Shown here in pieces: positions 1-3,030 of a DNA stretch of 64,000 nucleotides. This DNA comes from Dehalococcoidia bacterium (GTDB lineage: Bacteria; Chloroflexota; Dehalococcoidia; Lucifugimonadales; Australimonadaceae). Position 1 is the first letter of the stretch, and each line of letters starts with the position of its first letter. Below the pieces are notes generated by a model, which was given only the letters and a program-made list of their open reading frames with translations, did not search any database and was not told the origin of the DNA. Where the stretch lies: the NCBI GenBank assembly GCA_965220205.1, contig OZ244812.1:1223588-1287587 (forward strand), in the 5' to 3' direction. The translations under genes and the position numbers were made by a program.

Positions 1-377
1 CCCTGGGCGGGTTGCTCAAGGAGTTCCCCAAGCTGCGCTTCGCATTCTTCGAAGCCGGCGGCTCGTGGCTGCCCTGGGCCATGTACACCCTCGACCGCGT
101 CTACCACATCGAACCCCAATGCGCCCGTTGTGAGGCGCCGCCCAGCGAGCACCTGCAGCAGTCCTGCTGGGTGGCCATCGAGCCCGACGAGTCGCCCATC
201 GTCGGCGCGGTGCAGTCCATCGGGAGCGAGAACTTCATCATCGGCAGCGACTACCCCCACCCGCCTTCCACCTACCCCAACACGGCGGCCGGCGTCGAGC
301 AGATGGAGGGACTCTCCGAGGAAGCGAAGGAGAACATCCTGGGCCGCAACCTCCAACGGCTGTTCCGCATCGACTGA
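1..377 (+). CDS. amidohydrolase-2 family (ACMSD-like metal-dependent hydrolase), C-terminal fragment; 5' end outside window
   Basis: The frame is open to the window edge. The C-terminal FIIGSDYPHPPS motif parallels GSDYGHQD, TTDYPHSG and ASDFPHE in the three other amidohydrolase ORFs of this window. Confidence 0.75.
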   Translation, partial: LGGLLKEFPKLRFAFFEAGGSWLPWAMYTLDRVYHIEPQCARCEAPPSEHLQQSCWVAIEPDESPIVGAVQSIGSENFIIGSDYPHPPSTYPNTAAGVEQMEGLSEEAKENILGRNLQRLFRID

Positions 378-476
378 CCTCTGCCTTGTGGCGCGCCTTG
401 CGCGGCGGCGGTAGAATCTGGACACGTCCCGGCCAGGCGGGACGCAAACGCGAGCATCGCAGATTGGAGCCTTGTC

Positions 477-1115
477 ATGGCCACTATGAAGGCCGACGTC
501 TATTTCGACTTCCGCTGACCCTTCGTCTTCAATGCAGCCGTTTGGCTGGATCAGGTGAAGGAGGCCCACGGCGGCGAAGCGCCGCTGGAGGTCAACTGGA
601 AGCCCTTCTCGCTAGAGCAGGTCAACCAGAAGGTCGGACCCGACTACAAGGCGTGGGACGAGCCGGACGAGAACCTGGGCGGCAGCCTCTGGGGGCTGCG
701 CGCAGGCGTGGCCGCCAAGCGCCAGGGCGAAGACGCCATGCGGCGTTACCTTCCGCTGCTGCTGAAGGCCAGGCACGTCGACCGTCTCGACCTCGGCGAC
801 CACGACCTGCTGAAGCGGCTCGCAGCCGAGGCGGACCTCGATGTGGCGCAGTTCGAGCAGGACCTGAACGACCGCTCGACGCTCGATGAGATTGCCGCGA
901 GCCACACCGAGGCAGTCGAGGAGCGGGGCGTCTTCGGGACGCCGACCTTCGTGTTCGAGAACGGCGCGACCGCGTTCCTCAAGCTCATCAAGCCTCAGTC
1001 GCCCGAGGACGCCGCGAAAGCGTTCGACTCCGTCGTCAATGTCATGTCGAACAACATCTTCGTTGGCGAGCTCAAGCGCCCGCAGCCGCCGTGGCCGAAA
1101 GGTGTCTTCGATTAG
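477..1115 (+). CDS. DsbA-like / HCCA-isomerase-like thioredoxin-fold protein with in-frame UGA (codon 14, nt 516-518), candidate selenocysteine
   Basis: The track ORF 555-1115 lacks the N-terminal active-site strand. The same frame upstream reads ATG477 MATMKADVYFDFR-TGA-PFVFNAAVWLDQV and joins KEAHGG with no other stop. A hairpin lies at 527-560. The product call for 555-1115 is firmer than the recoding call. Confidence 0.55.
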
Positions 1116-1833
1116 CCAGCGGCGCGAGTCCGCCGAGCCCGATTGGGCGGCGCTCGAACGGACCATCGGCATACGTTTCAAGGAGCGGTCACTGCTGCGG
1201 CAAGCGGCGGTGCACCGCTCCTTTCTCAACGAGCACTCCGGCGAAGGATGGGAGAGCTATGAACGGCTAGAGTTCCTCGGCGACGCCTTCCTCGGATGGG
1301 TCGTCGCCCACGAGCTCTACGTCATGTACCCCGGTTTCGACGAGGGCGCCCTTACCCGCGCCCGCGCCGCACTCGTAATGGGCGCGACCCTCGCCGACGT
1401 TGCCGGCGAGCTCCGGCTTGGCAGCTACCTCTACCTCGGACAGGGCGAGGAGGCCACCGGCGGACGCTCCCGCCAGACCATCCTCGCCGCTGCCCTCGAG
1501 GCGCTGATCGGCGCGGTGCTCATCGACCGCGGCGAACGGGCGGCGCGCCGTCTCGTGCTGCGGTGGCTCGGTCAGCGCATCGCCGACATGGGCCCGGTCG
1601 GCGCGGCCCGCGACGCCAAGACCGCGCTCCAAGAGCTCACGCAGAAGGCGGGACTCCCCTTGCCGGCGTACGAGCTCATCGCCGAGGAGGGCCCGCCCCA
1701 CGCGCGGCGCTACACCGTCCGCGTACTCGTCGACGACAACGCCCGCGGCGAGGGGTCGGGCCGGCGCAAGGCGGAGGCGGAGCAGACCGCGGCCGCCCAG
1801 GCCATCCGGTCGCTGGAAGCGAACCCGCCGTAA
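1102..1833 (+). CDS. rnc: ribonuclease III
   Basis: ERLEFLGDAFLG signature followed by a C-terminal dsRNA-binding-type region. There is no in-frame ATG; GTG 1102 is proposed as the start and overlaps the upstream stop, so the start is uncertain. Confidence 0.9.
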   Translation: MSSISQRRESAEPDWAALERTIGIRFKERSLLRQAAVHRSFLNEHSGEGWESYERLEFLGDAFLGWVVAHELYVMYPGFDEGALTRARAALVMGATLADVAGELRLGSYLYLGQGEEATGGRSRQTILAAALEALIGAVLIDRGERAARRLVLRWLGQRIADMGPVGAARDAKTALQELTQKAGLPLPAYELIAEEGPPHARRYTVRVLVDDNARGEGSGRRKAEAEQTAAAQAIRSLEANPP

Positions 1834-2067: not shown

Positions 2068-3030
2068 ATGGTCTTCAGACTCTTCAGGCGCAAGGACAAG
2101 ACCACACAGGCGCTCGCCAAGACGCGTAAGGGCTGGGGCGGCGGTTTCCGCGCTGTGTTCGAGGGCGCAACGCTCTCCGACGAGGCCCTGTGGGAGTCCG
2201 TCGAGGACGCCCTCATTGCCGCCGACGTCGGCGTGGAGACCTCCCTAGCGCTCGTCAACTGCGTCCGCGGCCGCGTCCGGGCGGAAGGGTCCACGGGCGC
2301 CGACGTCGTCGTCGAGATGTTCAAGGAGGAGATGGCGGTCCTGCTCGACCCCCAGGACGCGTCCATCTGGGACTGGTACGACCAGCCGGATATCCCGGCC
2401 AAGCCCTTCGTGCTGATGGTGGTTGGCGTGAACGGCGCCGGCAAGACCACGAGCATCGCGAAACTCGCCCAGCACTACCATGCGATGAACAAGCGCGTGC
2501 TGCTGGCGGCCGGAGATACGTTCCGCGCCGCTGCTGTCGACCAGCTCAAGGTGTGGGGCGACCGGCTGAACGTCGACATCGTTGCGCACCAGCACGGCTC
2601 GGACCCCGGCGCCGTGGCCTTCGACGCCTACGCAGCCGCGGTCGCCCGCGACGTCGACGTACTCATCATCGACACCGCCGGGCGCCTCCACAACAAGGCC
2701 CCGCTCATCGACGAGTTGCGCAAAGTGCGCAGGGTGCTCGAGCGGCAGGACCCGGCGTCGCCGCACCAGACGTTGCTCGTACTCGACGCCACCACCGGCC
2801 ACAACGGCGTCGAGCAAGCGCGCGTATTCCAGGAGGCCGTCGGCGTCAACGGCGTGTTCCTCGCCAAGCTCGACGGCTCCGCGAAGGGGGGCGTCACCGT
2901 GGCGGTCGCCCAGGAGCTCGGCCTTCCGGTCGTCTTCATCGGCACAGGCGAGGGTCTGGACGACCTCTCGCTGTTCGACACCGACGACTTCGTCGACGCC
3001 TTGTTCGGCGACGAGCCGGCGCTGGCCTAG
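2068..3030 (+). CDS. ftsY: signal recognition particle receptor FtsY
   Basis: [11 protein letters not shown]-loop, DTAGRLH and [14 protein letters not shown]-GTPase motifs. Confidence 0.95.

Follow-up and report, generated by a model that had tools for sequence, protein, structure and literature searches.

The present analysis indicates that positions 477-1115 of the window, that is, the whole stretch of 64,000 nucleotides analysed here, very probably constitute one gene for a 212-residue cytoplasmic DsbA-like selenoprotein, in which selenocysteine (Sec) is predicted at the active-site position, encoded by the UGA codon at 516-518. A selenoprotein with a locally recoded UGA had been proposed in the first-pass annotation of this DNA, and the proposal is supported by the conservation of the UGA column, the Sec machinery of the genome and a downstream hairpin that fits the bacterial SECIS model.

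Reading frame and gene call

The reading frame is described by the following features.

466..469, plus strand: Shine-Dalgarno-like GGAG, 7 nt upstream of ATG 477, from direct reading of the sequence
477..1115, plus strand: full candidate selenoprotein gene, 212 codons plus the TAG stop, open once the TGA is read through
516..518, plus strand: predicted UGA selenocysteine codon, residue 14, in the motif F-D-F-R-U-P-F-V, from column conservation and the upstream coding signature
555..1115, plus strand: truncated 186-aa gene call with a GTG start, from the list of open reading frames (ORFs); a mis-annotation

ATG 477, TGA 516-518, GTG 555 and TAG 1113-1115 lie in one frame that contains no other stop. 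Codons 1-13 read M-A-T-M-K-A-D-V-Y-F-D-F-R and are followed by the TGA, and translation confirmed the earlier statement that this upstream segment joins the called ORF without a further stop. The called ORF (GTG 555-1115) has neither strand beta-1 nor the active site. It is represented in the public protein collection by a 186-residue cluster, and nearly all public gene calls of the orthologs are truncated alike, to 182-192 aa, with the aligned Met being the start of the orthologs at the DNA level. The start of many database homologs thus corresponds to codon 555, yet the conserved upstream segment and the TGA are retained in their DNA, which points to the same mis-call and not to a genuine start at this site. 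The NCBIfam collection holds no model that would rescue the full-length call; the best match, the Rcas_1661 selenoprotein family, was far below its threshold (21 bits vs 190). Such truncated ortholog records lose the catalytic residue, and functional or structural inference from them would be wrong. Elsewhere in the window TGA had been described as an ordinary stop, and this was confirmed directly upstream, where TGA 375-377 ends an amidohydrolase gene; TGA is therefore an ordinary stop here.

Conservation of the in-frame UGA

In a class sample of 301 genomes, the gene was present in 49 genomes as 50 copies, 43 of which contain exactly one in-frame TGA and 7 of which contain Cys. When 30 of the class-sample loci were read as DNA, the TGA was in the identical column in 28 and was replaced by Cys in the other 2, the column pattern being [FYI]-D-[FY]-x-U-P-[FYWH]-V; the remaining 5 TGA-less copies of the sample also have Cys in this column, as do 4 full-length proteins from the homolog search. 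Moreover, a scan with one genome per species found 467 relatives, and the best 79 usable loci, all from Dehalococcoidia, SAR202 or Chloroflexota MAGs, had TGA in the UGA column without exception (79/79). Taken together, the two sets comprise 109 orthologous loci, 107 of which have TGA in this column, counts that are not independent events since the orthologs are mutually related. Cys at the UGA column was read in P0033, P0075, P0110, P0120, L034, L041, L129-L133 and DR2335. The first-pass annotation had placed the UGA in the catalytic-residue column of the DsbA-like motif, and the alignment to PF01323-type homologs agrees with this placement, with Cys or Sec found in that column and Cys in the homologs and DR2335.

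The segment upstream of the UGA carries the signature of a coding sequence. Over the 10 codons that precede it, the residue at -3 is always Asp, encoded by either GAC or GAT, the residues at -5, -4 and -2 are aromatic and their codons vary synonymously, and entropy is 1.31 at third positions vs 0.85 at first positions. Of 86 distinct sequences, 24-29 have stops in the other two frames. Column conservation and this upstream coding pattern together mean that a pseudogene, a sequencing error and a separate leader peptide all fail as explanations. It is also very unlikely that the UGA is a true stop, with a 186-residue protein made from GTG 555 and with 477-518 as a chance or leader mini-ORF. Such a short product would be missing strand beta-1 as well as the nucleophile of the fold, in more than 100 genomes the 13 codons before the TGA are protein-conserved in frame with the TGA always in the Cys column, and full-length Cys forms exist; these observations stand against the gene callers, which give 182-192 aa here and in nearly all orthologs, and against the normal use of TGA as a stop in the genome (e.g. 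375-377).

Several loci showed individual features. Genome G083 has two copies of the gene (C1:1706735-1707343 and C1:2385152-2385751), both with an in-frame TGA. In L036 and L037, an upstream ThiS/MoaD-like frame (...DGDLITVVPFIRGG) enters the selenoprotein gene in frame with no stop, which may reflect a gene fusion or the overlapping end of an upstream gene. In L121 (L121:3013-3096), a premature TAA or TAG lies approximately 27 codons past the Sec codon, reflecting either a pseudogene or an assembly error.

Selenocysteine machinery and Sec/Cys switching

The host genome is a single 2.93-Mb contig, and a search for the Sec machinery, named earlier as a check on the proposal, recovered tRNA-Sec (72.8 bits; called SeC with anticodon TCA by ARAGORN), selA (515 bits vs a cut-off of 268), selB (345 bits vs 242) and selD (382 bits vs 125), all above the curated cut-offs. 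The selD gene lies on the minus strand at C1:1178452-1179369, approximately 44 kb ahead of the window. It has a single in-frame TGA of its own, and SelD is therefore probably a selenoprotein too in this organism.

Within the class sample, SelA was detected in 220 of 301 genomes, and the selenocysteine trait is therefore widespread in the lineage. All 43 TGA-form genomes have machinery, with SelA in 40 and SelB in 3 without detected SelA, and neither SelA nor SelB was found in 4 of the 7 Cys-form genomes of the class sample. Thus, the TGA form was never seen without machinery, and machinery loss accompanies Cys. In a maximum-likelihood tree, the 11 Cys forms occupy at least 8 separate positions among the Sec forms, at least 6 of which are forced by well-supported branches, indicating that Sec/Cys switching has been repeated.

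Hairpin downstream of the UGA

Two nested features describe the RNA structure that follows the UGA.

520..561, plus strand: whole minimum-energy hairpin, with a lower stem 520-528/553-561
532..551, plus strand: conserved SECIS-like core, from folding, pair conservation, synonymous bias, enrichment and model fit

The apical stem pairs CAGCC (535-539) with GGCUG (544-548) in 5 bp around a GUUU loop (540-543), 21 nt after the UGA, and the core is extended by the pairs A532-U551 and U533-A550 across a G534/G549 mismatch. The 60-nt fold has an energy of -22.4 kcal/mol with z = -0.99 vs shuffles, and from this single sequence alone the hairpin is therefore within chance. Among 93 distinct orthologs, the five apical pairs are preserved in 82, 91, 100, 95 and 73%, compared with 15-47% for a slid partner. 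In 28 class-wide sequences, the covariation score is 0.230 vs 0.150 in shuffles, none of 500 of which reaches it, and changes on both sides were observed in 4 of 7 upper-helix pairs. RNAalifold returned no consensus structure for the 28-sequence alignment, and the pair counts were made on the structure given above in place of such a consensus. Divergent clades carry replacement hairpins at the same place, e.g. CUGGGAU...AUCCCGG and CGCCGC...GCGGCG. The outer stem CUUC/GAAG (527-530/557-560), proposed in the first-pass annotation around the same apical stem, did not hold. While the apical stem 535-548 is present and conserved, the proposed outer pairs are not conserved (53% paired vs 35-59% slid), and the minimum-energy fold has the register 520-528/553-561 instead, a lower stem that is weakly conserved itself (68% paired vs 37-51% slid).

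The core stem overlaps the conserved peptide A-A-V-W-L, and its conservation is therefore partly driven by the protein; of the Cys forms, three with this peptide were available for contrast, and they retain 3-4 of the five apical pairs. Judged by codon choice, the hairpin evidently constrains synonymous sites: GCA accounts for 85% of the 5'-arm Ala codons in Sec forms vs 12% of the Ala codons in the rest of these genes, and CUG for 82% of the 3'-arm Leu codons vs 43% elsewhere. In addition, a perfect mini-hairpin, defined by loop, G and spacing rules and an energy of -6 kcal/mol or better, was found at 78% of true UGA sites vs 12.6% of the remaining codon positions of these genes, a roughly six-fold enrichment. 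The bacterial SECIS model specifies a loop of 3-9 nt, an upper stem of 4-16 bp, a minimum free energy of -7.5 kcal/mol or lower, a G in the first two loop positions and a distance of 16-37 nt after the UGA (PMC13188914). With its 4-nt GUUU loop, 5 bp, distance of 21 nt and energy of -22.4 kcal/mol for the whole hairpin, the element agrees with these published rules, as the first reading of a bacterial SECIS had anticipated. The Rfam search yielded no matching family, the sole match being a chance fragment of a group-II intron (E = 0.33). A bulged-U variant of the stem occurs in the clade of L104, L105, L116, L118, L119 and L122, which has an extra U in the 3' arm (GGCUUGCG opposite CGCAGCC).

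The machinery and the hairpin bear together on whether the UGA might be read as a standard amino acid, with Trp, Cys or Arg inserted by a near-cognate tRNA or through a locally reassigned code. The residue inserted at a conserved site is undecidable by sequence alone, which leaves some room for such readthrough; however, the genome holds a complete Sec system, the TGA form is restricted to genomes with selA or selB while Cys is found in lineages lacking these genes, a SECIS-type hairpin follows the UGA at the canonical distance, and neighbouring genes end at TGA, making this explanation highly improbable. A reassigned genetic code was rejected on the last of these grounds, that is, because TGA stops the neighbouring genes. 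The least probable explanation, with a negligible chance of being correct, is a pseudogene with a nonsense mutation or a TGA arising from sequencing error, for in relatives the region is neither decayed nor frameshifted, the same TGA recurring in 107 independent assemblies at approximately 40-100% protein identity with the frame intact on both sides, so that the additional premature stop of ortholog L121 weighs little against a gene conserved in more than 100 genomes, and a pseudogene was rejected.

Predicted protein

For the domain search, Cys was substituted for U in the translation. Two motifs of the protein are referred to below.

939..944, plus strand: Thr155-Pro156 of the invariant G-x-F-G-T-P-T motif, with G151, F153, G154, P156 and T157 invariant in family alignment A4
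1074..1103, plus strand: C-terminal signature K-R-P-Q-P-P-W-P-K-G, (nearly) invariant in A4

Residues 7-163 match PF01323 (DSBA) over profile positions 3-175 with 63.5 bits vs a cut-off of 25.6, and PF22234 is matched with 30.7 bits vs a cut-off of 27. Since the PF01323 match begins at profile position 3, the active-site strand is included in it, in line with the earlier suspicion that the call at GTG 555 misses this N-terminal strand. The profile search found no crotonase domain in the window protein. An AlphaFold2 model built from a 50-sequence alignment (pLDDT 93.4, pTM 0.87) shows a thioredoxin fold with a helical insertion, in the order beta-alpha-beta, helices, beta-beta-alpha. A fold search of the PDB gave 109 matches at E <= 0.001, and the 50 listed were all DsbA-like or related thioredoxin-fold proteins. 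The assignment to a DsbA-like thioredoxin-fold gene in the first-pass annotation is thus in agreement with both the domain score and the predicted fold. After DR2335, the fold matches were Rv2466c, FrnE, DsbM, HCCA isomerase and kappa GST; the matches to the last two are distant (2imd, TM 0.56; 1r4w, TM 0.58; 3fz5, E = 7e-8).

Cys is absent from the entire protein, the active-site motif is U-P-F-V, and no second Cys is conserved in alignment A4. The invariant residues are D11, U/C14, P15, W41, L46, N50, A79, Q83, G84, L96, R99 and H100, together with D132, G151, F153, G154, P156, T157, G163, K169, E198 and K200, and are followed by the invariant tail P202-Q-P-P-W-P207. Thr155-Pro156 is the putative cis-proline loop of the thioredoxin fold. 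The region of the C-terminal signature was modelled with low confidence (pLDDT 55-67). At the N-terminus, M-A-T-M-K-A-D, strand beta-1 starts from residue 4, and a signal peptide is therefore absent by inspection. The protein is predicted to be cytoplasmic and of the DR2335 single-Cys type. A classical periplasmic DsbA was considered and rejected, given U-P-F-V in place of C-x-x-C, the lack of Cys and the lack of a signal peptide by inspection.

Gene neighbourhood

Two genes follow on the same strand.

1102..1833, plus strand: rnc (RNase III), from translation, with a putative GTG start
2068..3030, plus strand: ftsY, third gene of the conserved order, from the ORF list

The rnc start at GTG 1102 probably overlaps the selenoprotein stop at TAG 1113-1115. 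Among 80 related loci, rnc is directly downstream in 78 and ftsY follows rnc in 58. No terminator-like site was found between the selenoprotein gene and rnc, the promoter and terminator scan being otherwise uninformative, and the selenoprotein gene is probably co-transcribed with rnc and ftsY as an operon. The upstream neighbour, at window positions 1-377, is an amidohydrolase-2-like gene. In 4 of the 80 related loci it is conserved upstream on the same strand, at 69-76% identity, and 3 more have weak matches on the opposite strand (25-28%); its presence upstream in just 4 loci places it outside the conserved unit.

Discussion

Herein, we propose a mechanism for the synthesis and action of this protein, drawn from bacterial Sec insertion and from the predicted fold. 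First, SelB-GTP with Sec-tRNA(Sec) would recognise the apical hairpin 535-548 while the ribosome is at the UGA, and selenocysteine would be delivered there in place of termination. Second, the Sec would be positioned at the N-terminal end of helix alpha-1, the nucleophile site of DsbA-like proteins. The lack of any Cys and the presence of U-P-F-V instead of C-x-x-C suggest a one-selenol enzyme. Third, the selenolate might attack a disulfide, a mixed disulfide or another oxidised or electrophilic sulfur substrate, and an external thiol, provided by a small thiol compound or a thioredoxin-like partner, might then resolve the resulting selenenyl-sulfide.

A more specific role may be considered, in which the DR2335-type domain would be a CoA-linked redox enzyme, upgraded to a one-selenol form in SAR202/Dehalococcoidia, where its gene would have become fixed in one operon with those of RNase III and FtsY. 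In three metagenome representatives (P0190, P0193 and P0230; 414-423 aa), a Cys-form domain is fused to the C-terminus of CoaE (dephospho-CoA kinase), and these fusions fall into three separate 50%-identity clusters. The reading is based on the CoaE fusions, on the absence of a resolving Cys, by which an outside thiol would be needed, and on the near-invariant rnc-ftsY order. As a neighbour of the gene, coaE was found in 0 of 115 loci. We regard this role as unlikely; if it were true, the enzyme might, for example, remove or exchange CoA on protein or small-molecule mixed disulfides.

The selenoprotein reading itself has several consequences. Across SAR202 and other Dehalococcoidia, a large, abundant and uncultured marine lineage, this gene family normally takes the Sec form. 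Since the Sec form occurs with the machinery and Cys occurs where the machinery has been lost, the family offers a clean natural Sec/Cys series on why selenium is kept. Current knowledge is not overturned by the finding. DsbA-like selenoproteins and the active-site motif have already been catalogued, and the novelty is therefore modest and mainly that of an annotation correction. The searched literature yielded nothing specific on SAR202 selenocysteine, HCCA-isomerase selenoproteins, 7DK9/7DKA or DR2335, the supplement of Peng et al. 2016 does not separate the DsbA-like forms, and the family is not named in the deep-Sep paper. Judged against the literature searched, the new elements are the assignment to the DR2335 subfamily, the near-universal Sec form across Dehalococcoidia/SAR202, the way in which the Sec form co-varies with the machinery, the linkage to rnc-ftsY and the systematic truncation.

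Comparison with known systems

The RNA element resembles the SECIS/SelB system of the E. coli fdhF type, in which a hairpin lies directly 3' of the UGA within the coding region, with a small apical loop beginning G-U, a spacing of 16-37 nt and an encoded SelB, all of which apply here as well; the window hairpin, a predicted SelB target, has no sequence similarity to the E. coli element. Among selenoproteins, two DsbA-like forms have been described. Form 1, reported from the Sargasso Sea with the motif UxxC (Zhang, Fomenko and Gladyshev 2005; PMC1088965), shares the DsbA-like fold, the Sec at the first active-site position and a SECIS hairpin just past the UGA. However, form 1 keeps a resolving Cys (U-x-x-C), whereas the window protein has U-P-F-V, and with Val at the fourth position and no Cys an internal selenol/thiol redox couple would be impossible. 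The "DsbA-like protein form 2" selenoprotein, with PF01323 and the motif DxxUP, was listed in a review by Zhang et al. 2026 in Appl Environ Microbiol (PMC13188914), where it is credited to Peng et al. 2016. It shares with the window protein the Pfam family, a single Sec and D-x-x-U-P (here D11-F-R-U14-P15, with D11 and P15 invariant). The form 2 representative MDP6049977.1 is labelled "crotonase", a domain not present in the window protein. The subfamily studied here is probably form 2, as matched by Pfam family and motif.

Among proteins of known structure, the mycothiol-dependent reductase Rv2466c of Mycobacterium tuberculosis and FrnE are second-tier fold matches (TM 0.63-0.69). Like the window protein, they are cytoplasmic and DsbA-like, and they work with an external thiol system, but their active site is C-P-W-C and not U-P-F-V. 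The closest relative is DR2335 of Deinococcus radiodurans R1 (PDB 7DK9, native; 7DKA, C24S), which is the best profile match (full length, E = 4e-27, profile positions 3-197) and the best fold match of the model (TM 0.79-0.81). Its motif F-D-F-L-C-P-Y-A shares F-D-F-x-C-P-[FY] with the family, Cys24 aligning to U14, and this aligned residue is the one that the depositors mutated to Ser. As in the window protein, neither a second cysteine of the x-x-C type nor a signal peptide segment is present in the alignment, and the C-terminal RRPVP of DR2335 aligns to the window tail as a related R-P-x-P motif, but without P-Q-P-P-W-P-K-G. DR2335 differs in having Cys instead of Sec, in being approximately 28% identical and in an insertion of approximately 14 residues after strand beta-2. 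In a 2022 review, DR2335 was described as DsbA-like and cytoplasmic, with one conserved Cys and, as of that date, no functional data (PMC8945050). Through the present assignment, this orphan structure would be joined to a large family whose nucleophile is under strong selection.
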